Shown: positions 6,832 to 29,461, counted from the first letter of the stretch. The stretch: 64,000 nt of DNA from Botryllus schlosseri (GCA_051294905.1 CM119371.1:186001-250000); one strand, 5' to 3'. Notes: generated by a model from the letters alone, not told the origin. Program-made: numbers and translations.

Positions 6832-9800
6832 TAAGGGCGATTTTTTGACATGTCAAAAAAGTCAAAATTAGGTCAAAATTGTAGCGTTTGGTCAAAAAAT
6901 GTCAAAATTGTTGACAAAAACAAAAAAAAATTGCCACCTGCATTTCGTTTGTGTCGTAGATTTTGCACTGTCTATGAACTTACCATTTTACATTTTACAG
7001 CTTGTAGCCCACTTCATAGGCCTACCGTTGTAGACGGCCCGTTGTCTGCTCATTGTGAATTATGAACATTCAAATTAAACGTGGTTGACGTGCTGTTATG
7101 CTTAACGTACCGCAATATCCTAAGTGAAGCAAGACTCCATAGGCATTGCATGGTTTTTATATCAAGAAGCGTATTGTGAAAAGTTGTGATGTCCACCATT
7201 GTCAGAATGAAGCAATACGGTGTGCTACCAGCAGTGTACGCACAACATCGGTGTTGTCAGCCAACAGCTGCTACAGTTAAACATTCTCTCTCCATTCTTG
7301 GCAAGCTACTTAGTAAGGACAGACACTTTCTACTAGGGATGGTGTGAACCTCTGAAAGGTTCAGGTTCGTGTGAACGCGAACCTTTTTGAAAGGTTCTGT
7401 GTGAACACGAACGTGAACCTCATGACGTCACGTGACGTCATATTGCTATTTCGTACCTTATCTGTCAATGAAGTGATAGCCTATATTAACGAACACGATA
7501 CCTATAGCGACGACTCGGGCCGCATCATGTCACAATGCAGAACTACATGTTGGCGTTTTAAACGTCACTAAATGTATCAACTGAGGCAATCAAAGGATAT
7601 AACACTTCTATAAAATCAATATCTTCCGTCGCTTTGCCAACAATTTCGACGAGGGCTTACCAGGGAATATAAGCTTACGCCTTAACGGTCTAGGCTAGAC
7701 AGGACAATTAATGTATTCGGTGTCTGAGTATCGCTACATTGATATTGAGCAGAGTGTAAAACTGGTTTCTATATTTGCTACCGATATTACCCCATTAACA
7801 AGTTTTACAGCAGTAGCCAACACCTCAATCACAAGGATTTGGTTTTCGTGATGTAGTAAAGATATGAGGTCCAGATTGCCCCGTACTCCTGCTAGCTTTT
7901 TTGCATCAGAAAACGATATCAATCTCATTAATTGGTTAAGCATCATTCGCTGACTACGTATTTCGCTCGTGATGTTGTGTTATTGCAGGTCAAACTCACA
8001 GCAGAGAGACTCTAAATATTCACAAACGGAAAGCTGAATATTTCGAGCAAAAATTTGTTACAAAGCAAGTAAAACTTTTGAGATTGTCAAGGTGCATGCT
8101 CGTTTATAGTGTTGATTTTTAATGCTGCCAGCGCCATGGATAGAGTGGCCCGCAGTTGAAATGCAATTAATATGAACCAAAGATGTTATAATCAAAGCCG
8201 TAACAGCACTTCGTCAGCCCCCCCAAACATTGGTCTTGGGCCCCCCATAGGGGTATAGACCGAACGTGATAAAACGACCCCCCCCCCATCACGTTGTTCG
8301 CGTTTTTCACGAAATTATCCGTAGTGTATTGTGAGCCAGCGCGAAGCGCGAAAATTTTCTATAATTTATGATAAAATCGGTTTAACGAAATATATTGTTC
8401 ACGCCATTTTAAGATTTGAGCAATAGGGAGTGTTGTGAACCTTACCTAATTCCCTGAAGTGAAAACCCGAAAGACCTTCGTGAGTCGTCTATTTGTCGTG
8501 TGAATTATAGATAAGAGAAATAAATCGTACGATCTTTGGTGCATGTAATCTCTCGTGGCTATGATATATATACGAATGTAACACAGCGTATATACACGTT
8601 AATTCATCATTATTAGCTGATTCGGAAGTCTATTGCATTGCCGTACGTGATTCAATAAAGTTACAAGTCGTGGAGACAGAAACAAAATATATTCGTCAGT
8701 GTGATCCATCGAATACATGTGCAATAGACAGGTCGTGGTACGTCAGACAACAAGGCCGTACGGCTTGGTTACGCCGGTCCGTCAAAAGAAGAAACACGCA
8801 GCGAATTGTAAACGCAACCTTCTGGAGTCAGATAAAACACAATTATACAACTACAAACATTCGCTCTGCGTTATAATTGGTCAATCAGATCGGCGACTGC
8901 ATATGTAATATGCTATCAATTTATGGTCCTCTCTACTCACGTAATTAGATTTACCGGTAGAGGTGAGTGAAGTGTCTTGAAAACGGGAGGGCTCGTAAAT
9001 AATGATTAAACATCTTCGGGCGGGTGGAACCGTTGATATGACTTCGTTACATGATGTTATTTCGTGACTTCCAGTCTGCCATATCAAAAAATATAGAACC
9101 GCCCCAACGTAGGCTTCTAAACTAAGAGAAGCACACGATTTCAAATTGATATTTCTTCACTGGCATAAAATTTTTTCCAGCGGGATGGTATTTGTCTTGT
9201 GAGGTTCAGATTGCAATGACAGGAACATTCGGCGCCAGTCATTTAGGCGCCTATTGACAATTAAACCTATATGTATTTTGTATATATAGCGAAGTCTTTG
9301 ATCTGCATAAGGGCATAGACCTTTTCGGCCAAGCTTTTCTCGCTGCCAATCGTTCTGGCACACTTCTTGGAGTCGCATGTTATATGGCCTAAAACTTGAA
9401 TGTATGTCTTGGTGGGTCGTGGCGCGGTAATGGCCCAATACCCAATAATAAAGATAAATGGCTACTTGCATTCGAGCGCAGCGCGAAAAATTTTTGAAAA
9501 AATTGCATAAATTTTCAAAATATACTCTATGATTTATGCTAATTCGCGAAATAATTTTGGGCCCCCATCGAACTCGCCCCCTCCCCCCCCCAATTGGGGG
9601 GTTTGGGGTGCGGCAGTTACGGTGCTGGTTATAATGAAGTGAAAATTGTAATATATGAAAAAGGTTCACAGTGCAGAACCTACCAAGGTTCTGTTGTGAA
9701 CGCGAACCTCCAAATTTCCGAGGTTCACACACAGAACGCGAACGTGAACCTCACGTTCACACCATCCCTACTTTCTACCCGAGAATGTAGGAAAGTATCT

Positions 9801-16134: not shown

Positions 16135-16486
16135 AGATAAGCCACTCACAATGTATTATATTTGGATAGTAAAGGCAGAATTGTTATGGTGAATGGTATA
16201 TAACTATAAATAAAAATGTGTCTGTAGGGCCTACAATGAAGGCTGCTTTCCATACTGAGATAGGATTAATCAGAATGAAATTATAAATGAATGAAATGTT
16301 GACATCGTGGTGTGAAAGATTAAAACAATATTAGGCCTACACTGTAAAAAATATCCTTGGTAAATCCCGAGCTTAGGCTCGGATATGACTCGATTCAACC
16401 CGTTTCCTAGTTTTTTCCCCAAAACGTCGACTCGTTTTCAGTGCATTCCGAGTCACGCGAGATGTCAACCGCATGCGAGGTTGGAA

Positions 16487-16641
16487 ATTACCGAGGATAC
16501 CATTACCGAAGCTGGAACCTTACCGAGAATGGTCATTACCGAGAATAGACACAACCGAGAATGGACATTACCGAGAATACCATTACCGAGAATGGACCCT
16601 ACCGAGAATATACATTACCGAGAATGGTCATTACCGAGAAT
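16487..16641 (+). repeat. Subterminal tandem array of ~10 copies of a 14-16-bp (CA)TTACCGAGAAT unit
   Basis: Directly visible. The core TTACCGAG(GATA) also occurs within the right TIR. Confidence 0.9.
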
Positions 16642-17071
16642 TTAATTGCTCAGCGCGTTGATAAGCGCGCGTATTCAAATGTTCGACGCGTGCGTATTTC
16701 ATTGTTCACGACAGATCAGGGATCGCTAATTAACAGCACTTTCGGACTCGTCGACAAGCTTATCATACGTCTATAATCGCCAATACGGGGATGTTGTATA
16801 ATCGTTGTTTACGCATCGCATGTACTTAACCCTAATGAGTCAATGCTACGTTACTAAATTCGGAAAAAATCGAAACCAGCACCCCCTTTTATTTCAACCC
16901 CCCCTTGTTTTTCGGCTGGCTACGCGCCTGGCTATTACTCACACTGGCTTACAGAAAAGCATTACACATATATAAGACAACCAATGAATCTTGTGATTTT
17001 ATTACTTCTCCAACCTATCATATCAGGCAATTATCAACCGTCGAATTTTTCGTCATTTGTCACTGATCAAA

Positions 17072-17896
17072 TCAAGCCTGTTGTCCGCTGCTGGCTTCGT
17101 CAAGGTCAGCTCCCCCTACAATCTGCCAGAGGGCGTCGGTTTCTGGGATGACAGCTTCCGATTTCGACTTCTGAAGTTCGAATTGCTGTGACCATGTGAT
17201 CTGATGGGATCTTTTAAATTCTGTTGCTTGTACTTCGCTCACTGGGACGCAATGTCGATAATACAGGAGCTTCCACATTTGCCGGATCGTTGGTTTGAAG
17301 GAACTAACACCCAAAATTTCTGACATGGCGTCGCCGTCTAGTTGAAGATTCGTCCCGCAGACTCGGATATTTCGAACATCCATATATGTGGCAATTAACA
17401 CTATGATCACAATATCTTTGAGAATTCGTTTGCGTAGGCCACACGTGGAGTGCAATAAGTGGTATAGCTCATCCGAGATCAAAAATCTCTGTTCATTTGG
17501 TCGGCGAAGGATTTTTTTATAGCTGTCTTCATCTGCCATGATAATACTGGGTATGTCCTCCAAGATGCCGTATTGTTTCTTGAAAATTTTATAAATCGTT
17601 TCCGTTCGTCTAGTCTGCTTTTTCACGTCATCAGCAACTGTCTTCAAATACTTCATTACTTCTTGATTACTGCGTAATATCCTTTCTTGAGATTCCCAAA
17701 TAACGTGGAAATCATTGCGAAGCTGCAATATTTCTGTGCAAAAATCCACCGTTTCAGGCATGTTATGTTCACAAGACGTACTGTACACGCATGTGAGTAT
17801 ATAGTCTTTGTCAAAACAGCACTCCAGCATGCACTGAAAGTGATTACATGTGAGTATGGTCTTTGTCAAAACATTTTTGTCAGTGGAAAATTCCAT
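17072..17896 (-). CDS. Transposon-borne hypothetical protein (274 aa from ATG 17896, or 229 aa from ATG 17761); predicted coiled coil plus possible BEN-like domain
   Basis: A 900-nt stop-free frame inside the TIRs, head-to-head with the transposase. It has a heptad-like segment LRNDFHVIWESQERILRSNQEVMKYLKTVADDVKKQTRRTETIYKIF. The segment ILKDIVIIVLI..MDVRNIRVCG...LDGDAMSEIL loosely fits the BEN pattern, judged by eye only. Confidence 0.6.
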   Translation of the reverse strand: MEFSTDKNVLTKTILTCNHFQCMLECCFDKDYILTCVYSTSCEHNMPETVDFCTEILQLRNDFHVIWESQERILRSNQEVMKYLKTVADDVKKQTRRTETIYKIFKKQYGILEDIPSIIMADEDSYKKILRRPNEQRFLISDELYHLLHSTCGLRKRILKDIVIIVLIATYMDVRNIRVCGTNLQLDGDAMSEILGVSSFKPTIRQMWKLLYYRHCVPVSEVQATEFKRSHQITWSQQFELQKSKSEAVIPETDALWQIVGGADLDEASSGQQA

Positions 17897-18069
17897 TGTA
17901 AAATCGGGAGTTGAGATTACATCATCAAAGTTTCCCCAACTATTTGCTAGAGAGAGGTCTTTTGAGGTCAATTATTTGCCGCGCGAGTGGATGCGCGTGC
18001 GTACCACGCATTTCGCCAGAACACAGCAGAGTTAACGAACGCGGTGAAGTTTCACGCCGACAGACGGCC

Positions 18070-20409
18070 ATGAATTGGGTTTGTCCGGCATCAGGTTGTA
18101 TTTCTAATCAGTTTTCATCGCGAAAAGCCTTGCTGAAACATGTGCGCAGAATTCATCGTTTCTGCAACACTTTCAACTGCAAGATGGAGCCGTGCAATGG
18201 TAAAATTCCACCGTTTTCGACTTATCATAGCTTCAGGATGCATCTTAACCGCGAGCATGTGAAACGAACAGTGTTAAACTCAGATTTTGAAGCAGATCTG
18301 CGCGTTTCCACCCTAGAACAGTCGGATCAGTCACAGCAAGAGACTGGGAAAGTTAATGACAGTTTACCAAACATTCATGATGTATTTTTGCGGTTTGCTT
18401 TGCAATGTCGCGAAAAACATCTGTTGCCAATTTCGGTATCCCGTGACATCTTATTCGGCGTAGTTGAGCTTTTAGAAGCATTTAAAAATGCTTGTGCTAC
18501 CAACAATGTTGATAATTTGCCAGATCTGAGGCAAATGATGGATCAAACACAGAGTGACTATCAATTTAAGAAATGTTTAACAAGCATAGGTCTTGTTGAG
18601 CCCGTTAAAGTGCTTTGTGAAGGGGATGAGGACCAATCATATCAATATATTCCCATATTAAGTACTCTGAAAAGATACTTGGAACACAAGGATGTAATTG
18701 AAAGTGTAGATGCGAATATGTCTTGTTCTTCTGCTCATGGGTTTCTGTGCAACTTCTGCGATGGGGATTTGTTTAAAAATAATCACTTTTTTAAAGGTGA
18801 TCAGAGTTTGCTGCGCATCCATTTATATTTAGATGATGTCGAAATTTGTAACCCATTGGGGAGTTCGAGAAGTATACACAAGCTTACTTGCTTTTATTTT
18901 ACGCTTGGAAATGTGGAAGTGAAGTTTTTGTCGAACTTGAGGAATATTCATCCGGTCTTGATTGTAAAAACTTGCACAGTGAAAAAAATGGGATATCATG
19001 CGATAGTCAAGCCGTTAATTCAAGATTTAAAATCCCTGGAAACATCTGGAATGGATGTAACTCTTTGGAATGGCATGACAAGGCATTTCAAAGGTAGCAT
19101 AGCAACAGTCACGGGTGATAATTTAGCAAGTCATGACATATCTGGGTTTCGTCGTTCATTCAGTAGCGGTCGTATTTGTAGATTCTGTATGTGCCATTAT
19201 TCAGATTTAACTGTGAAATTTTCTGAAACAATGTTTGAATTGAGGTGTCCATCCAACCATGAGCTGCATGTCCGTGATGTAGCAAGGCACTCATCACTCG
19301 AGAGAGCATATGGAGTGAGAATGAGTAATCCATTTTCTGATCTTTTAGCGTTTGATGTGATTCATTGTAATGTTTTCGACGTTATGCATGATATCATGGA
19401 GGGCTGTCTCGTTTTAATCCTGGAACTTGTCATAAACAAGTTGATCATTCAAGATTGTGACATGACAAAGTCAGATTTTATTGAACTTGTGCAACAATTC
19501 CCCTATGGCAAGTATGAAAGCCGTAATAAGCCTCGCTACAAAGGTAAAGTTTCGACATTGACTGCAACGCAGAGCTGGTGTTTCTTCAATCATCTGAGTT
19601 TCATGGTCGGTACAAAAATCGATGAACAAAATGATGTATGGGAATTGTATTTGCTGTTATCAGATATATGTGACATTGTATTTGCTAAACGTGTTACGGT
19701 TCAGATGATTCATTCACTAGATGTGCTGGTTGTTGATTTTTATAGCGCGGTGTTGAAGCTGGCACCAGAAATAATTAAGCCGAAATTCCACTACTTATTA
19801 CACTATGCGACCGCAACGAAAATCTGCGGCCCGATCTCTCATTTGTCCTCTCTTAGATTCGAATCTTACCATCAGATCGTAAAAAAAATTTGTAGAATTT
19901 CTGGAAACTTCAAAAACATAACTCATACTGTAGCCACTCGACTTCAGTACAGAAAATGTTGGGAAATGTCTTCACTCAATTGTTTGCATGATGATCCAAT
20001 GAATATCGAGCTCGTAAACATATCATGGAAAGATATACCAAGCCACTATGTTGCATTTCTTGGAATACAAGATATGGAAGGACAAGTATGTTCTTCGAAA
20101 TTCTATGACAATGGATATGAAACATATGGTAGGCAGGGGATTTATGTTGTAAATGAGGATGATGATGGACCAATATTTTGTCGTGTACAATATATTCTTT
20201 ATTTCAATGAACAGTGGCACATGTGTGGTGAATTGCTGAAGTCGAGATTTGTACGACATTTACACTGCTATGCTGTGGAGGAAACTGGTACTGTTTACGT
20301 ATTTCAGCCCGGGGAATTATTTTACCAAAGGCCCCATGATGCATACTTCATTGGCAAATCACAGTACATTAGGCTGCATCAACAAATATGTTTCAAGTTT
20401 GAACCCTAA
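18070..20409 (+). CDS. CACTA/EnSpm (CMC) DDE transposase, 779 aa, with two N-terminal C2H2 zinc fingers
   Basis: The first ATG is at 18070; the ORF track starts at an upstream TTG. Zinc fingers: CPASGC..HVRRIH and CKMEPC..HLNREH. Catalytic-region motifs: LYLDDVEICNPLG, TGDNLASH, CRFC (Cx2C), DVMHDIMEG, KPKFHYLLHY (Hx3H) and LRFESYH. There are no stops or frameshifts. Confidence 0.93.
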   Translation: MNWVCPASGCISNQFSSRKALLKHVRRIHRFCNTFNCKMEPCNGKIPPFSTYHSFRMHLNREHVKRTVLNSDFEADLRVSTLEQSDQSQQETGKVNDSLPNIHDVFLRFALQCREKHLLPISVSRDILFGVVELLEAFKNACATNNVDNLPDLRQMMDQTQSDYQFKKCLTSIGLVEPVKVLCEGDEDQSYQYIPILSTLKRYLEHKDVIESVDANMSCSSAHGFLCNFCDGDLFKNNHFFKGDQSLLRIHLYLDDVEICNPLGSSRSIHKLTCFYFTLGNVEVKFLSNLRNIHPVLIVKTCTVKKMGYHAIVKPLIQDLKSLETSGMDVTLWNGMTRHFKGSIATVTGDNLASHDISGFRRSFSSGRICRFCMCHYSDLTVKFSETMFELRCPSNHELHVRDVARHSSLERAYGVRMSNPFSDLLAFDVIHCNVFDVMHDIMEGCLVLILELVINKLIIQDCDMTKSDFIELVQQFPYGKYESRNKPRYKGKVSTLTATQSWCFFNHLSFMVGTKIDEQNDVWELYLLLSDICDIVFAKRVTVQMIHSLDVLVVDFYSAVLKLAPEIIKPKFHYLLHYATATKICGPISHLSSLRFESYHQIVKKICRISGNFKNITHTVATRLQYRKCWEMSSLNCLHDDPMNIELVNISWKDIPSHYVAFLGIQDMEGQVCSSKFYDNGYETYGRQGIYVVNEDDDGPIFCRVQYILYFNEQWHMCGELLKSRFVRHLHCYAVEETGTVYVFQPGELFYQRPHDAYFIGKSQYIRLHQQICFKFEP

Positions 20410-20553
20410 AGATAATTGAGCTTATACAGTGCAGTATGTTGATCGAAAAATATTGCTTTCACAACTTTTTTGCAATTTTCATTATTTTGATTATGACCAT
20501 TGTATTTTACAGATACACAAAACACTAGCGCTGTGATTGTTGTACAGTTGAAT

Positions 20554-23500
20554 ATGAAACTGCTGGTTAGTTATGGTGACAGTAAAAGAGTGATCAGAGT
20601 TGATCACCAATCTGAGGTTCCTGATGTTGTGAGAAATGTATTTCATGATGAAATTGGTGACAATCAATTCAAAATGGAATATTACGACAAGACATTTGAT
20701 TCGTACGTCGATCTTCATGACATGTCGGAAATTGTAGATGGACTAATGTTGCGGCTGATTTTGAGCACCAGTGGCAGTAAGTGAAATGTAGGATCAGTAG
20801 GCTCATTCATGAGAGAGATGAATACCGTAAAACGGGGTAACATTGGACAATTTTCAACAATTCCGCTTTGTATCTTGGAAATGCTAGGGTGTAGGGGAGG
20901 CAAGTTTTGTGTTTTTTTGGAGTCATGGAGCAAAGATTAGAATTAACTAATCCAAAACCTTCATGATCATAAATAAGTACCTTATTTTTGTAAATTATCT
21001 GTGTCCAAAGTTTTGAATCTATGAATCACATGCTATCTATGTTTGGCTGTAAGAAGTTTATTGGCCATCAATTTTGGCGAAATTGACCCCCTCCATTAAT
21101 TTATCGATGTTGGGTCAAGTTTATCTGGTAGTGAAATGAATCCACCTTTTATAAAGACTACTTGCAGTACTGCTGCCTCATGAAAAAGAATTGGACATCC
21201 AGCGGCAACCCTTTTTCATCAATAACCATTTAAATCTTTTACTGCTTAGTGTCCAAAGTTACCCTTAAGTCCAAAGTTACCCCGGTTTACGGTATTTACC
21301 TATACTCATATTTTTCTTGCAATAAATTAGATTAGAATTAGAATACTGTCATTTCGCAATAATTTTTTGAAATTACGCAACTATAATTATCTACCGTAGT
21401 TCTCCAAGTCTGATCAGATGTGCCTTGGCGAAATAGATTCACCCCTCATCGAGTCTATTTTTATTGGTGCAGAGGGAACCTATCCGAAAACCAACAACTC
21501 TGTTGTTGAACAAAGTGACTTGGATATACTCGGCTCCGATTGCACCAGCACGATGGCTTCAGGAGGGCAATCTAACGAAGACGTAATGCATAGTGAAACG
21601 TCAAGCATTGACAATGTTGGATACTGCTGTGATTCTTCATTTCCTAACCTGCCTGTTGAAGATTTTGAACCTGAAGGTATTGACTTACGGTGAATTATTA
21701 ATATTTTCCTCATTCCTTATCCTTCTCTTCAGATGAAAGTATATCAAACAGTACCTTGTCGAGCTCCAAGGCATCTACCAGTTCAGCAGATTGTGACGAA
21801 AACAACAAACCATTGCCATGGCCCAACGAATATAGGATTTCTTTACCAAAAGCCATAGAAAAGGAAGTGAAGCAGTATGAAAAGACAAAAGTACTTCCAC
21901 AAAAATTGAGACTGAAAATTGTTCATCACCTGTTTTGGGACCTGCTGCAATACACTAGGTGACCTACAATATAAATAATAAACCTTTCTTGTATATGACG
22001 ATAATTGCAGTGGCCTAAAACAGTCATTATTCCTAGTCTATATCCCACAAGACAACAATACGATGCGCCAGTAGCTGCTTTGATAACGAAATATCCTTGG
22101 ATGCAAGATCGTTTGAAATTCGATGGATGTGAAAATTTCGTGAGCTGCTTGTGTTTGAACATTCCAAACATTTCTTCAAATATCTTACGTTGCAGCATTC
22201 TTGGAAAAAACAGCTCATAACCCAGTTCCAGGAGTACCGTAGGGGCCGTAAAGATCCTCTCGTTACGGAAAAAAAGCAAAAACACGGAAAACACCGTCAG
22301 GGTAAACGGAAACATACCGACGACCTTGTTGTGGAAACATCGAGTGAAAGGTGCACCAAACCTCGAATGTCATCATGCATTGTAAGAATTTTCAAATCCT
22401 TCATTGTTCATTAACGTTGGTTACCTGTATAACGGGTGAGAGGGGGAATATTGAGGATATTGATATTGAGCACAAGAGAATAGCATATTTTGAAACGGTC
22501 CTGTCAATACCTATATCTATACCTATATCTATAGGTACAGCCCGTTCATCTGGAAAGTTGGGGCAATCTTAGCAGTCTACTCAAAACTTGCCTACAATCC
22601 TAATAGAAAACTCCAGACTCCAAGCCAAGCAAGAGTATTTTATAAATATAATTTTTTTTTAATAAATCGATTCCTCAATATTTTTGTGGGGGCCGAAACA
22701 CGGGTAGCTGGGGGCCGCGGTTGGGAATCACTGGTCTATAACGAACAGCGTCACGCGAATTTTTCAACGCATGGGTTCCCAAACTTTTTATATTCTCAAT
22801 CTCAAACTTTTATTGGAAAATACCCCGCGACCCGCCTCCGCAGAATATTGAAGAAATTGGTCTGTACCTTCGCCCAAACCTACTCTCGGCCTATGCGAGA
22901 GTCTATCGACTATATTTGCGCAGTAATAGCAATTACGCAATTATAAACTCGTCAAAACTTGACGATGAAAAATGCCTCTGACCATCTCTGATTAGAAAAT
23001 ATATTTTTTCTTGTAGATTCCAACCGTATACCCGCCGGAAGATGAGCGTAGCATCGAAGCGCACCAAAAGGAAATTATGACTGAGTGGAAAAGAAGCCGA
23101 AATGCTGATAAAGACACAATCATGGATAGGATGAAAAGGACCTTTAAAGATCGTCGACATGAAGTTATCAAAGGGACATCAACAACGAGTCTGTTGCGTG
23201 CGTACCCAGTTTTGGCAGATGCTCATTGGGTAGGTATAAAGCAGGGGTCTCCAACACGCGGCCCGCGGGCCGCATGCGGCCCGCGAGGTCCTATTTTGCG
23301 GCCCGCGACCTGATTTGAAAAAAATTCAGAAAAACGCTTAGTAAATCATGTTGAAACGCTAAAATTGATTTCAGTTGAAACAGAATGTTGTTGTTTTTCA
23401 AAGTGAGCCATTCTATGTGCCCACTATCACTATTACTCACTAGTTGATACGGCTTCGGCATGGTAATATCATTCCATGGATGCAGAATTTGCTGGTACGA

Positions 23501-25868
23501 ATGGGCATATTGCCTTGACGTGCAATGGCCCACCACTGCCAAGACCGAGACGCCTGCAAAACGACTTCGGGCGCTCCAAAAGACCATGCTTTACGAGGAG
23601 ATAGTTGTCTAGCAAGTAGGCCTACCGTGTATAGCTATTAGCTAACCCCAATATTGATTCTTCAATCCATGGGTGGCCAATCTGCAGCAGTAGAAGGAAA
23701 ATTATGCGGCTGTCGACACTTGTATAATAACAACCCTAAGTTTTCACAGATACCCCCTGCATCAGCTGTATCTGGGAATCTGATCACATTGGCCGAGAAA
23801 GGATAAATATTTTATAGTAATATGTGAAACTATACTAATATTTATTGACGAAATTCACTCGTGAACATGAAAAATTTTTCGCGCTTCGCGCGACTACAGA
23901 TTGGTTCTCTGTGGCTCTTTACAACATAACTACTAACGATTTGGTGCGCATAGTAAGCCGATATGTGCATATAGATTAGTTCGGAGTGTACCGGCAATGG
24001 ACATGGACATGATAACGTGGGTATTTGGCCCCAGCTAGTTTATCACGACTAACCACCGGTATGCGGCCGCAGGCTACATGAGTACGCGAGATGCGGCCGT
24101 GAATTACAAAAATGTTGGCCACCCCTGTTTTCAGTCAAATTGAAGACCATCCATGGCATATGCTATGAAGTCAATATTTTCAACTGTTCAGATTTTGGAA
24201 GAAATGAAAATGATTTGTCAGAAACAAGATTGTTCCGACGATACTTACTCTGTCGACCTGACGTCAAAGATTTTGGAGAAGAGTTATAGCTCAGCATCAC
24301 GATACATAGTAGCGGCGGATAGTCCTTTGGAAATCACGAACTTATATAGTAAGCATATAATTACAATACTCGAAACAATCGTTTTTCATTACAATTTATA
24401 CTGGATTCCTATTCGAGTACTCGAATTATTGTGCCCTACGCATGTGTCAACGTACCCCCTTTACTTGATAAACCGCAAAAGTTCGAACTTACGCTGACTA
24501 CGTTATTTGTTATTTCGGGAATCATTTTCTGTCCTTTAAGTGCTTAATCTGAGTTGGCACTTCGTTTTCAGGTACTCAAAAACTGGACTGGATGGTGTAC
24601 ATCCCAACGATCTTCAAAGAGAAGTATGACAACTTCCTGATTGTGGACAAGGTGTGTTGATCATCGGTATCTCTCAAAATGCAGCTAAACATTTCCACCC
24701 ATTCATTACATAATTTTGGACATTTAAAATGGCCTCTGTCAGTATTGTTTTCACAGTTCGTACTTAATTTAATTTGAGACGATATGATATGACCACATGA
24801 TGTATCTTGTAGAATATTGATATGTGCTCGTGTTGATCTACGCCAGGGGCGGGCAACTTCTCCAGTCAGCGGGCCGGATGTAGGAAAATTAAGTACTTGG
24901 CGGGCCGGATAGCTGAATCAATACATTATTAGCCCATTTATCCTCATATACAAAGAATAAATCGCATGTAATGAATGTATTGTAACGACACCTATGTCAT
25001 TTCAAAGCCATTTCTCGCCGATGTTGAGGAAGACAATGTGGATTTGAGAACATCATTGTCATACAGGCGCCACCATATCTGCTTCTGTCTGATCGATCAA
25101 CACATGTTGCAATCCTTAATTAAGATTTCAAGGCGTTCGATAACCCCGGTACCACAAATTTACCAAGATATCAATCCATTTTGGTTGAGTACATCGTAAA
25201 TGCCGATAATGAAAGTCTTCTCGCGTCTACGAACTTACGCGTAAGCTCTCCTGTGGCACGCATTCCCGGTAATGGTTTTCTCGATATTGACCCGACACCG
25301 GCGGGCGGGCCACATTATCAACTAAGACGGGAAACTGTCCGCGGGCCGGACAAAATCGCCTCGCGGGCCAGATCCGCGGCCCGCCCCTGATCTACGCCTA
25401 TTGTTTTCCAACTTATTTTCACTGAACAACCCCGCATCAAGCTTGATATTTCCCAATGGGTTATAATTAATTAATTAAATATAATTTACATAATGTTCCA
25501 GCTTCTGCCTACCCGCCCACATTATAAATCACTGATCCATAAACCTCACACTCTTTTAAACTATTCCATGGATACTGGATAGTAACATTTATATTTCGTA
25601 GGAGCCGAAGAATGTCTATCCGACCATCGCATTCAATTCTGAGACGGAAAAGTGGACGATTCATTTCGATGGAGAAGTTGTGAAAGGTTTATTTGGTTTT
25701 CACCATGCTCTAGCATGCCTGATGGCTATTTATTGGGTTTTCAATGTGAAGTTTGCTCCTTCATCATCAAACTCCTTGAACTTTGTCGCAACTTTTCTCG
25801 CCAAGCTTCCAAACGTCAAACCAACTAATGCTGTTCGCAACAAGATAAACATGACACTCAACGATTAA
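20554..25868 (+). CDS. EnSpm accessory (ORF2) protein, 9 exons, 552 aa; SAMD3-like C-terminal region and possible PB1/ubiquitin-like N-terminus
   Basis: GT-AG exons: 20554-20776, 21473-21676, 21733-21958, 22037-22139, 22196-22381, 23017-23229, 24192-24348, 24572-24651, 25602-25868. They total 1659 nt with compatible phases and no internal stop. Motifs LYPTRQQYDAPVAALITKYPWM, SWKKQLITQFQEYRR, MKRTFKDRR, LLRAYPVL and ALACLMAIYWVFNVKF resemble the second ORF of animal EnSpm elements, often annotated SAMD3-like. Confidence 0.85.
20825..21292. mobile_element. Tc1/mariner-pogo type MITE in intron 1 of ORF2
   Basis: TA|CCGTAAAACGGGGTAACATTGGAC ... GTCCAAAGTTACCCCGGTTTACGG|TA, with a TA TSD. Confidence 0.88.
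23242..24127. mobile_element. Composite hAT (Charlie-like) MITE(s) in intron 6 of ORF2
   Basis: Left end CAGGGGTCTCCAAC...GCGGCCCGCGGGCCGC, an internal second left end at ~23669, and right end GTTGGCCACCCCTG. No clean TSD. The interior is related, inverted, to ~28390-28600. Confidence 0.7.
24844..25389. mobile_element. hAT MITE in intron 8 of ORF2
   Basis: CAGGGGCGGGC / GCCCGCCCCTG termini and perfect 8-bp TSD ATCTACGC (24836-24843, 25390-25397). Confidence 0.92.
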
Positions 25869-26339
25869 TTGTCATATTATGATTTGTGGCGGTCCTGTTT
25901 TTGCCCTCTTTGATGACTGCCAGCAGTAATATCTTGTGTTGTGACGCTTAGCATTGGTTTTTTAATTAATCGATGCTAGTCCTTGTCGATATCAATTCGC
26001 AATATATTTGTAATGGTCGTGGGCGTGGCCCAGAGTTTGGTCTTTTGATTATATTTTTGGAATGCTTAACGTATTGGCAACCAACTGGCCTAAACCTTAT
26101 AAGCACCAATGTTCAATTGTTGGCACCATCACAGCGTGCTCATTACATAATAAAATTTTCAACTTGAACAACAAACATATATTGTTTGTTTACCTGAAAT
26201 AATTACGCATCATTATTAATTTGTGACACTGCAGGTTTCCAATATTGCTGATTGTATACTTTTATGAAACAATGCTTTATTTGCTGCTAATATACACTGC
26301 TTTTTAATCTGCAGACTGACTACTGATTTTGTGTGTTTA

Positions 26340-26455
26340 AGGTGAAAGGTCAATGACAATTATTTGTCAGGCTCGGTTTCTTGCAATCCTAGTCAGTCAG
26401 CACAGCTGGGATTTGGCTGAGGTGAAAGGTCAATGAAAATATAGGTGAAAGGTCG
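26340..26455 (+). repeat. Three subterminal AGGTGAAAGGTC(A/G)ATGA repeats (DR1-like)
   Basis: Copies at 26340, 26420 and 26443, near the right TIR. Confidence 0.85.
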
Positions 26456-26799
26456 ATGAAAATTATCAATAAGGGTCGGTTTTTTCCAATCCGAGTAATG
26501 GAAAACTCGGGATTTACCTACTTTAATGAGGTCGGAAAGTAGTTTCCCGGGTCACAAGTCGGATAATTTTGAACCTAACCTAATGTCGGGATTTACCGAG
26601 GATATTTTTTACAGTGTAATTCGAATTACTGATTGTAAGGACGAGAGTATTCGTTGCCGACTATATTTTTGTTGAAGGTTTTGGCCAACCATAGCAACGA
26701 TCATTTATGGCCACAGTTATATAGCATTTATCCTGCGTTTTAGTACCGAATTTTGGCCGCATCCACAGGCCAAAACTTCATGTCTATATGTGTCCAGGC

Positions 26800-28724: not shown

Positions 28725-29454
28725 CAGGGGTGTCAAACTCAAATTGCGCCGCGGGCCGGATTCAAGCTTTCAAATCGCTCGCGGGCCGGACCAGTAGACT
28801 GATTCCAAAATGTTAATTTGTGCTCTTGCTTTTCACTTGAATGCCTTAAAAGGCATGTGTAGATAATACGCGGATCATAATAGGGATTTTAAAGTAGAAA
28901 GTCGCGACACCTCTATGCGCGAACAATGGAATTCGCAAAAATACGATGATTGTCTGGTCGAACACAGTTAAGAAACGCTAAAACAGTCGCGTTAACGGCG
29001 ATATAAGTTGTCATATCAGGAGGTCTGTTTGGGCGAAAGTGACAGAGCAGTGCGATCATACATATTTCAATTATATATTTGTACAACTAATATATTTTCC
29101 ATGTAAACCGCGTATAACGGTGCCGCATAGGCGTTTTTTTGTGAATAACTACTTTTTGATCCATTTTCTATAAAACTTAGAACTTGGTTTGCACTTTTTG
29201 CTTTCTTGACATTGGGTTTCAATTTCCACGACTTGTTACTAGTGGTAACTAGAGTGAAACCACAGCGCCGTAGTCGGGTGATTATGATAGGGTTTATGAA
29301 CATAGAAGTATTTCCTGCAAAAAATCTCAACAATTGTTACAAATGTGCTGGAAACTATATGGATTTTTCAATCTACTCAAAATTGCTTCGCGGGCCGGGT
29401 AAAATCGTCTGGCGGGCCGGATGCGGCCCGCGGGCCGTATGCTTGACACCCCTG
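28725..29454. mobile_element. hAT (Charlie-like) MITE
   Basis: CAGGGGTGTCAA / TTGACACCCCTG termini and perfect 8-bp TSD GTCTAGGC (28717-28724, 29455-29462). Confidence 0.92.
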
Positions 29455-29461
29455 GTCTAGG

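Follow-up and report, generated by a model that had tools for sequence, protein, structure and literature searches.

The stretch of Botryllus schlosseri DNA considered here (GCA_051294905.1 CM119371.1:186001-250000; 64,000 nucleotides, below called the window, with positions counted from its first letter) contains a complete DNA transposon in which a transposase gene and a further open reading frame (ORF), ORF3, point away from each other across a short spacer. A preliminary description of the window had placed ORF3 in the transposon as a gene diverging from the transposase gene, and a comparison of copies of the element confirmed its place within the element, where it lies between the left end with its array and the transposase gene. 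It had also read the product as a coiled coil followed by a BEN-like DNA-binding domain; our analysis points elsewhere, and the product of ORF3 is very probably an MDM2-type SWIB protein carried by the transposon. The features on which the argument turns are the following.

16340..26616, plus strand: the whole DNA transposon, 10,277 bp, of CMC/CMCT type (EnSpm-Mirage-Chapaev clade), delimited by copy comparison
17072..17896, minus strand: ORF3 coding sequence including the stop codon, 274 amino acids (aa) if read from Met1, or perhaps 229 if Met46 is the start
17561..17761, minus strand: heptad or long-helix segment, aa 46-112, a putative coiled coil (heptad statistic; low-confidence AlphaFold helix)
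17210..17494, minus strand: MDM2-type SWIB-like domain, aa 135-229 (BLASTP, hhalign, shuffles and six-frame genome search)
17897..18069, no strand: head-to-head spacer, 173 bp, a presumed bidirectional promoter (CpG statistics)
18070..20409, plus strand: transposase gene, 779 aa (P0002), with weak Pfam matches

The 900-nt stop-free frame on the minus strand had been held to exceed chance expectation, and this was borne out by simulation: the frame at 17072..17971 runs for 299 codons without a stop, against a mean of 162 and a maximum of 237 codons for the longest stop-free frame in 64-kb windows generated under a first-order Markov model, none of which (0/100) reached 299. From its first ATG (17896) it encodes a 274-aa protein, P0001, in which we located FLISDELYHLLH and the strings ILKDIVIIVLI, NIRVCG and LDGDAMSEIL, all of them as previously quoted. 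The transposase ATG lies at 18070, giving the reported start-to-start spacing of 173 bp (spacer 17897-18069). Codons 1-36/45 of ORF3 are poorly conserved, carry indels in the copy with 92% identity and are missing from the 87% identical homologue P0003 described below; given this poor conservation, the true start may be Met46 (17759-17761), which would yield a protein of 229 aa and a spacer of about 308 bp. On the minus strand an AATAAA is present at 16998-17003, about 70 nt beyond the ORF3 stop.

Six-frame searches of the 495-Mb genome with P0001 and with P0007, a second member of the family, recovered five ORF3 loci, namely three intact copies of type A (100, 100 and 92% aa identity), one intact copy of type B (P0007, 211 aa, 30% identical to P0001, E 5e-23) and one type-B pseudogene whose frame is interrupted by a duplication of 10 bp and by a TAA. 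The frame, whose intactness among copies had been singled out earlier as informative, is therefore open in 3/3 loci of type A and 1/2 of type B. Association with a transposon was seen at four of the five loci, the intact ones, whose surroundings were compared. Next to P0007, in head-to-head orientation, is what is left of a transposase (aa 666-774, 44.5% identity), and P0007 is separated by 1.4 kb from a TTTTTTACAGTG end; the type-B gene is accordingly part of a deletion derivative that stems from a related element. Beyond this genome, an exhaustive phmmer search of 1.84 billion representatives yielded one real relative, P0003, an intact protein of 241 aa that is 87% identical and is encoded on a 1200-bp contig; word-index searches with P0001 and with the family profile likewise returned P0003 only. 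Two further phmmer matches, P0004 and P0005, were rejected as repeat-protein noise, and in a metagenome scan 0 of 99 pattern matches were confirmed.

The identity of the second domain emerged from the same six-frame searches, in which the only match outside the family, for P0001 and P0007 alike, was the SWIB domain of a single host protein, P0006 (E 3.9e-4 and 4.2e-6, respectively). P0006 is a 469-aa protein encoded by a single uninterrupted ORF (C13:1747962-1751306, ORF 1522-2928), in which Pfam detects a SWIB domain, a RanBP zinc ribbon and a C-terminal RING, and it matches full-length human MDM2 (8bgu_F) over three domains with E 4.6e-38. Given this domain set and the match to human MDM2, P0006 is the host MDM2 orthologue, and it is the sole MDM2-like gene in the genome scan for SWIB domains. 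The similarity of ORF3 to this bona fide SWIB/MDM2 member is significant over the full domain: aa 135-229 of ORF3 align with aa 4-99 of host MDM2 at about 24% identity, with BLASTP E-values of 6e-9 (P0001) and 1e-11 (type B), while hhalign relates the family profile to P0006 with 95.9% probability (E 5.6e-9, 92 columns). Smith-Waterman scores against P0006 were 98, 122 and 114, as compared with a shuffle mean of 27 (standard deviation 4.8), and 0 of 2000 shuffles scored as high. Similarity of ORF3 to the SWIB exons of the BAF60-like gene in the same genome was not significant. ESM-Atlas feature searches, which provide leads only, also ranked SWIB clusters first (0.82 for P0001; 0.87 with 181 shared features for P0007); the clusters are of a generic SWIB kind and come mainly from giant viruses.

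On the strength of this homology the ORF3 domain is predicted to adopt the SWIB fold, a cleft-forming arrangement in which a helix pair with short strands is repeated, and its likeness in sequence and profile to the N-terminal SWIB domain of MDM2/MDM4 (PF02201; PDB 1YCR, 8BGU), as judged with the host MDM2, extends over the whole domain. The helices predicted at 138-149, 154-172, 188-195 and 204-212 in a low-confidence model follow the order of what we take to be the four MDM2 helices. Among 15 positions that we assume to form the p53 cleft of human MDM2, including M62, Y67, Q72, H73 and V93, 10 are hydrophobic or small in P0001 by chained alignments (I165, I168, A169, M172, L184, L195, F200, I204, M207 and W208), so that most of the hydrophobic positions presumed to line the cleft appear to be kept.

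Ahead of this domain, the amphipathic heptad segment noted in the preliminary description holds modestly, with hydrophobic residues at 68% of the a/d positions of aa 46-112 as against 25% elsewhere, a value reached by 22 of 2000 shuffles. AlphaFold secondary structure gives a long helix over 46-107 or 40-109, at low confidence, and the segment is best described as a putative coiled coil. Besides this coiled coil in front and its being encoded by a transposon, ORF3 differs from MDM2 in several respects: it is only about 24% identical, falls below the Pfam SWIB threshold and is unlinked to vertebrate MDM2 by sequence search, its binding of p53 is putative, and it is devoid of the acidic region, the RanBP2 zinc finger and the RING, all of them present in P0006, no zinc-finger or RING match being found in P0001 with Pfam. 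On these sequence comparisons ORF3 is not an MDM2 orthologue and is instead read as a stand-alone MDM2-type domain behind a coiled coil.

SWIB and MDM2 domains are peptide-binding modules and not sequence-specific DNA binders. We considered a mechanism in which ORF3, a gene of the transposon read in the direction opposite to the transposase gene, would give rise to a protein that oligomerises through its heptad helix and accommodates an amphipathic helix from some host protein in an MDM2-like hydrophobic cleft. The prime candidate for such a target would be the transactivation-domain (TAD) motif of a p53-family protein. In the absence of a RING, the ORF3 protein would mask its target, in the manner of MDMX or the isolated MDM2 N-terminal domain, with no ubiquitination, and the masking could blunt either the p53 response to breaks made by the transposase or the repression of mobile elements by p53. 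The genome does encode p53-family proteins: multi-exon genes are present on C12 and C10, and two tandem intronless p53-like genes on C6 (18.598 and 18.606 Mb) encode proteins of 376 and 377 aa that are 77% identical. The latter (P0009 and P0010) have acidic N-termini with I15xxxF19xxV22 and I15xxxI19xxI22, and the spacing of these hydrophobic triads equals that of F19xxxW23xxL26. The latter motif is the part of the p53 TAD recognised by the SWIB domain of MDM2, and it is reported to be plastic across animals (PMC10303687); a restraint of mobile elements by p53 has also been reported (PMC4701979). Upstream of the multi-exon p53 genes a regular-expression search for an exon with the canonical FxxΦWxxΦ motif gave 4 matches in 60 kb, which is about chance, and none was convincing.

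That ORF3 supplies an oligomeric peptide-binding module of the MDM2 type, possibly a decoy for the p53 family, appears to us a serious possibility, if one that stops short of being probable on the sequence relationships described above. The decoy role taken by itself is an unlikely, though coherent, proposal. The same low probability attaches to its fullest version, in which the p53-binding domain of host MDM2 was captured, remodelled and fused to a coiled coil, and would act as a RING-less decoy that masks the TAD of a p53-family protein and suppresses the response to DNA damage, or the restraint of transposons, that is provoked by the activity of the element.

Several lines of evidence weigh against reading ORF3 as such a module, the first of them concerning the domain itself. 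The Pfam SWIB model (PF02201) finds nothing in P0001 at E<=1 or in P0003 and P0007 at E<=10, and a six-frame scan of the genome with it detects MDM2 and the BAF60-like gene only, without reaching ORF3. Pfam assigned ORF3 and its relatives to no other family either. Phmmer and profile searches of PDB sequences did not reach vertebrate MDM2 at E<=10, and a sequence search with aa 1-110 of host MDM2 gave no match. The structural check for a folded domain that had been proposed earlier produced two low-confidence models and no confident fold, the AlphaFold mean predicted local distance difference test (pLDDT) score being 37.2 from a single sequence and 36.9 from a 6-row family alignment, values at which the models are unusable; Foldseek comparison of a model of this quality (pLDDT about 37) with the PDB found nothing at E<=0.001. 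Three of the presumed cleft positions are changed in ORF3 (M62 to D173, Y67 to R178 and V93 to P202) and Q72/H73 fall in a gap. The PDB sequence matches that P0001, P0007 and the family profile did obtain (E 0.011-5) were set aside as coiled-coil or EF-hand noise.

The second line concerns the distribution of ORF3 among related elements, for which the ends of the transposon and one internal piece are needed.

16340..16382, plus strand: left terminal inverted repeat (TIR), which begins CACTGTAAAAAATATCC (89% complementary to 26574-26618)
26574..26616, minus strand: right TIR, forming an inverted-repeat pair with the left end
16482..16641, plus strand: subterminal array of about 10 units of 16 nt containing TTACCGAGAAT (repeat analysis)
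17859..17926, no strand: piece of 66-68 bp comprising the first 12 ORF3 codons and their upstream flank, with 96-97% identity in at least 7 non-autonomous derivatives

A sister element on C7 (3982700-3985000) has an intact transposase, 94% identical, and is without ORF3; its left arm of 720 bp is different and matches a non-autonomous family at 85-87% identity, and a tblastn search for ORF3 in this arm gave a best E of 0.2. At least seven non-autonomous derivatives, about 99% alike, are devoid of ORF3 and of most of the transposase while retaining the TIR, the array and the spacer, together with 66 bp from the ORF3 start region and the 3' end of the transposase, and these have clearly been mobilised recently in trans. 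More broadly, the transposase family comprises 58 scored matches among 340 candidates, and in the genome-wide searches no other of these 58 was accompanied by an ORF3 relative. ORF3 is an accessory gene, patchily distributed and optional for the element lineage.

Support for the expression of ORF3 is also thin. The spacer, in which the GCCGCGCGAGTGGATGCGCGTGCG string is located at 17978-18001, had been called CpG-rich and taken to imply a bidirectional promoter. The enrichment is real, with 15 CpG, an observed/expected ratio of 1.41 and a GC content of 0.50, but it is mild, the genome not being CpG-depleted (the ratio is 0.98 for the whole element, with GC 0.40, and 1.02 for the window), and a role as bidirectional promoter is plausible. 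The region 17926-18084, which covers part of the spacer, is kept in the deletion derivatives at 77% identity. Transcripts were sought in three runs of unrecorded type (X1, X2 and X4) and in raw RNA reads of a fourth (X23), about 6% of which was read. The three former runs carry intron-less, GT..AG-joined contigs of the gene downstream of the transposase and therefore contain cDNA. On ORF3, X1 has an exact contig at 17102-17295 (depth 15) and X4 has contigs at 17039-17274 (1 mismatch) and 17323-17601 (10 mismatches), at depth 4, whereas X2 has none and the portion of X23 that was read has no reads over 16683-17711. These contigs give neither strand nor start and could stem from DNA carry-over. 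A consensus of loose read ends at 18049 matched none of the loci retrieved. The adjoining region between the array and the ORF3 stop (16683-17025) is covered to a very high depth by contigs of the runs that contain cDNA, and these contigs show fixed mismatches. A 124-bp part of the region is also 79% identical to a sequence close to the type-B locus, and the region is probably a repeat in its own right.

The substitution pattern is likewise unfavourable in the short term. Between the window copy and the 98% identical copy on C1, the differences in the whole of ORF3 number 9 synonymous and 22 non-synonymous (omega 0.62), and those in aa 46-274 number 4 and 17 (omega 1.12), as opposed to 17 synonymous and 14 non-synonymous differences (omega 0.21) in the adjacent transposase; by Fisher's test the contrast between ORF3 and the transposase has p 0.07 over the full ORF and p 0.012 over aa 46-274. 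With P0003 as the third sequence, nine replacements could be assigned to the window lineage, of which 5/9 fall in aa 163-181 (binomial 3e-4, for a region chosen post hoc), which correspond to MDM2 helix alpha-2 and the following loop. The recent evolution of ORF3 is, on these comparisons, either unconstrained or diversifying. Types A and B have nonetheless both stayed open over 211-274 codons, share the layout of a helix followed by the domain and agree in 51 invariant columns, while their flanking DNA is no longer alignable, and this contrast makes long-term purifying selection on the predicted protein evident. The dN/dS comparison envisaged in the preliminary description thus came out near 1 between type-A copies (0.6-1.1) despite the long-term constraint between A and B. 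Two of the three base differences between the window and a further copy, on C3, are synonymous third-position changes inside ORF3 (17366 and 17606), and in the comparison with the 98% copy no bin of the element diverges more than 17500-17999, with its 33 differences over 500 bp.

Among the alternatives, the one that fares best would make ORF3 a SWIB-like adaptor unrelated to p53, which could bind a chromatin remodeller, a transcription factor, the transposase or the second protein of the element, and thereby aid the assembly or regulation of the transposition complex or of the chromatin of the element. SWIB domains other than that of MDM2 occur in chromatin and transcription proteins, the other SWIB gene of this genome being BAF60-like, and the Atlas neighbours of ORF3 are of the generic kind; the changes at several presumed p53-cleft positions and the retention of the divergent arrangement with the transposase in two lineages would also suit an adaptor. 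However, the similarity found within the genome is specific to MDM2 and does not extend significantly to the BAF60-like SWIB domain, the general Pfam SWIB model does not match, and the lack of ORF3 in a sister element with an intact transposase means that it cannot belong to the core transposition machinery. An adaptor of this sort strikes us as unlikely, yet well worth keeping in view.

A less probable account is that ORF3 is no more than a passenger: part of an MDM2-like host gene would have been captured in chimeric form, would do nothing for the element and would still be open in young copies only through their youth. The ratio near 1 between type-A copies, the decay of 1/5 family loci, the lack of ORF3 in the closest sister element and in the derivatives, the weak RNA support, the single real relative among 1.84 billion public representatives and the instability of the N-terminal 36-45 codons are all in line with this. 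Against it stand the A and B proteins, which at 30% identity have kept their open frames, layout and 51 invariant columns between flanks that cannot be aligned, and the intact homologue, 87% identical, in another data set. The surplus of replacements in aa 46-274 relative to the transposase (p 0.012) and their clustering in aa 163-181 also run counter to it and fit diversifying selection as well.

The preliminary reading itself, by which a BEN-like DNA-binding protein would recognise the TTACCGAGAAT array and act as a regulator or against silencing after the fashion of VANC, is very improbable: the array does lie 430 bp from the 3' end of ORF3, sequence-specific anti-silencing proteins of transposons do exist (VANC, PMC5735166) and some bacterial SWIB proteins are reported to be DNA-associated (PMC6426960), but there is no BEN signal in Pfam (P0001 at E<=1; P0003 and P0007 at E<=10) or in the six-frame genome searches, the domain is homologous to a peptide-binding one, the downstream spliced gene is an alternative candidate for end binding, and the ORF3-less C7 lineage and the derivatives keep the same array and have multiplied. 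The BEN model (PF10523) was accordingly rejected, its genome scan (0 matches at E<=10) being a weak negative in that no control genome matched either, and nothing links the ORF3 protein to the array. What survives of that earlier interpretation is a real, transposon-carried ORF with a heptad segment and then a second domain, and of its regulatory proposal the idea of an accessory or counter-defence factor remains plausible once DNA binding through BEN is removed.

As for the carrier, the copy on C3, located on another contig, aligns with the window from exactly 16340 to 26616/7 at 99.95-100% identity between unrelated flanks, and the two elements differ by 3 bases and by an insertion found in the window copy alone. 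With copies three bases apart, the element is young and has been active recently. In the 98% identical C1 copy (2.68 Mb) the left end and the array are lost. The remaining features of the element are the following.

16338..16339, no strand: left 2-bp target-site duplication (TSD), TA (right copy 26617-26618)
23503..23831, no strand: insertion of 329 bp private to the window copy and absent from C3 (copy comparison)
20554..25868, plus strand: downstream multi-exon gene, the second gene of the element (RNA reads and contigs)

CMC transposases are DDE enzymes with C(2)C and H(3-4)H motifs, and a CRFC string is visible in P0002, whose Pfam matches are all below threshold (Plavaka, E 0.004, 16.9 bits against a cut-off of 26.3; DUF4218, E 0.14). 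The inverted ends are of the CACTG (5'-CA..TG-3') kind, with CACTGTAAAAAATATCC at both ends and 45-nt arms that are 89% complementary, and the target duplications are TA/TA in the window and TT/TT around the C3 copy. The CMC/CMCT clade is characterised by 5'-CA..TG-3' ends and TSDs of 2-5 bp (PMC12730594), and the CACTG ends and 2-bp TSD therefore place the carrier in this clade. The earlier label EnSpm is correct at the level of the clade and does not hold for EnSpm proper, in which the TSD is 3 bp as opposed to 2 bp here.

The downstream gene has seven introns, supported by RNA reads or cDNA contigs, with GT..AG joints at 20776/21473, 21674/21731, 21954/22033, 22139/22196, 22381/23017, 23228/24191 and 24649/25600; the joined frame is open, and no Pfam family was found in the exon frames scanned. 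An alternative joint, 19091/21471, connects the N-terminal part of the transposase (to about codon 340) with the second exon of this gene. Short repeats around a palindromic GCGGGCCGCATGCGGCCCGCG occur at 23237-23332, 25340-25376 and 29364-29459, both inside and outside the element, and probably represent a family resembling miniature inverted-repeat transposable elements. Outside the element, another long open frame on the minus strand (9160-9750, 197 codons) lies within the simulated range (maximum 237).

In maize En/Spm, a CACTA element, TnpA and TnpD arise from one alternatively spliced unit and the TSD is 3 bp. The present element resembles it in its CACTG-type ends, subterminal arrays and alternatively spliced unit (here through the joint 19091/21471), and differs in its 2-bp TSD and in an extra, divergent third gene that classical En/Spm lacks. 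Comparable small proteins of other mobile or parasitic genomes are those with which viruses antagonise p53 and the SWIB proteins that giant viruses encode on their own; the connection of ORF3 with them consists of the Atlas leads (0.82-0.87), a sequence relationship has not been established, and none of them is transposon-encoded. Transposon accessory genes that act on host control include VANC, TET/JBP and ULP-type proteases. Like ORF3, VANC of the Arabidopsis VANDAL (Mutator-like) elements is an additional, fast-evolving protein encoded beside the transposase and thought to be directed at the host (PMC5735166, PMC10398659). It binds DNA motifs of its own element and causes methylation loss, whereas ORF3 shows no DNA-binding domain and belongs to an unrelated protein family, in another superfamily and another kingdom. 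Closer in setting are the TET/JBP genes that EnSpm, Plavaka and further CMCT transposons of fungi, members of the same broad clade, carry near the transposase; these are host-derived accessory genes, patchily distributed and proposed to serve counter-control (PMC12730594). They differ in encoding another protein, in targeting DNA methylation as opposed to a putative p53/MDM2 axis, and in belonging to fungi as opposed to an animal. Our full-text literature search found no paper on a transposon-encoded MDM2-type or SWIB protein.

If a p53-family protein is indeed the target, ORF3 would be the first transposon-encoded antagonist of the p53 pathway, a case in which a mobile element mimics the negative regulator of p53 and the conflict with p53 runs both ways. 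The fast, clustered replacements in the cleft helix (aa 163-181) would then be the trace of an arms race, and ORF3 would offer a minimal MDM2-like binder of natural origin, without a RING, and its evolution could be compared with the p53 motifs of its host. The case is a testable one, given that ORF3-bearing and ORF3-less sister elements, the host MDM2 and several p53-family genes are found in one genome. Even without p53 as the target, ORF3 would represent a clear capture of a host domain by an animal transposon of the CMC type.

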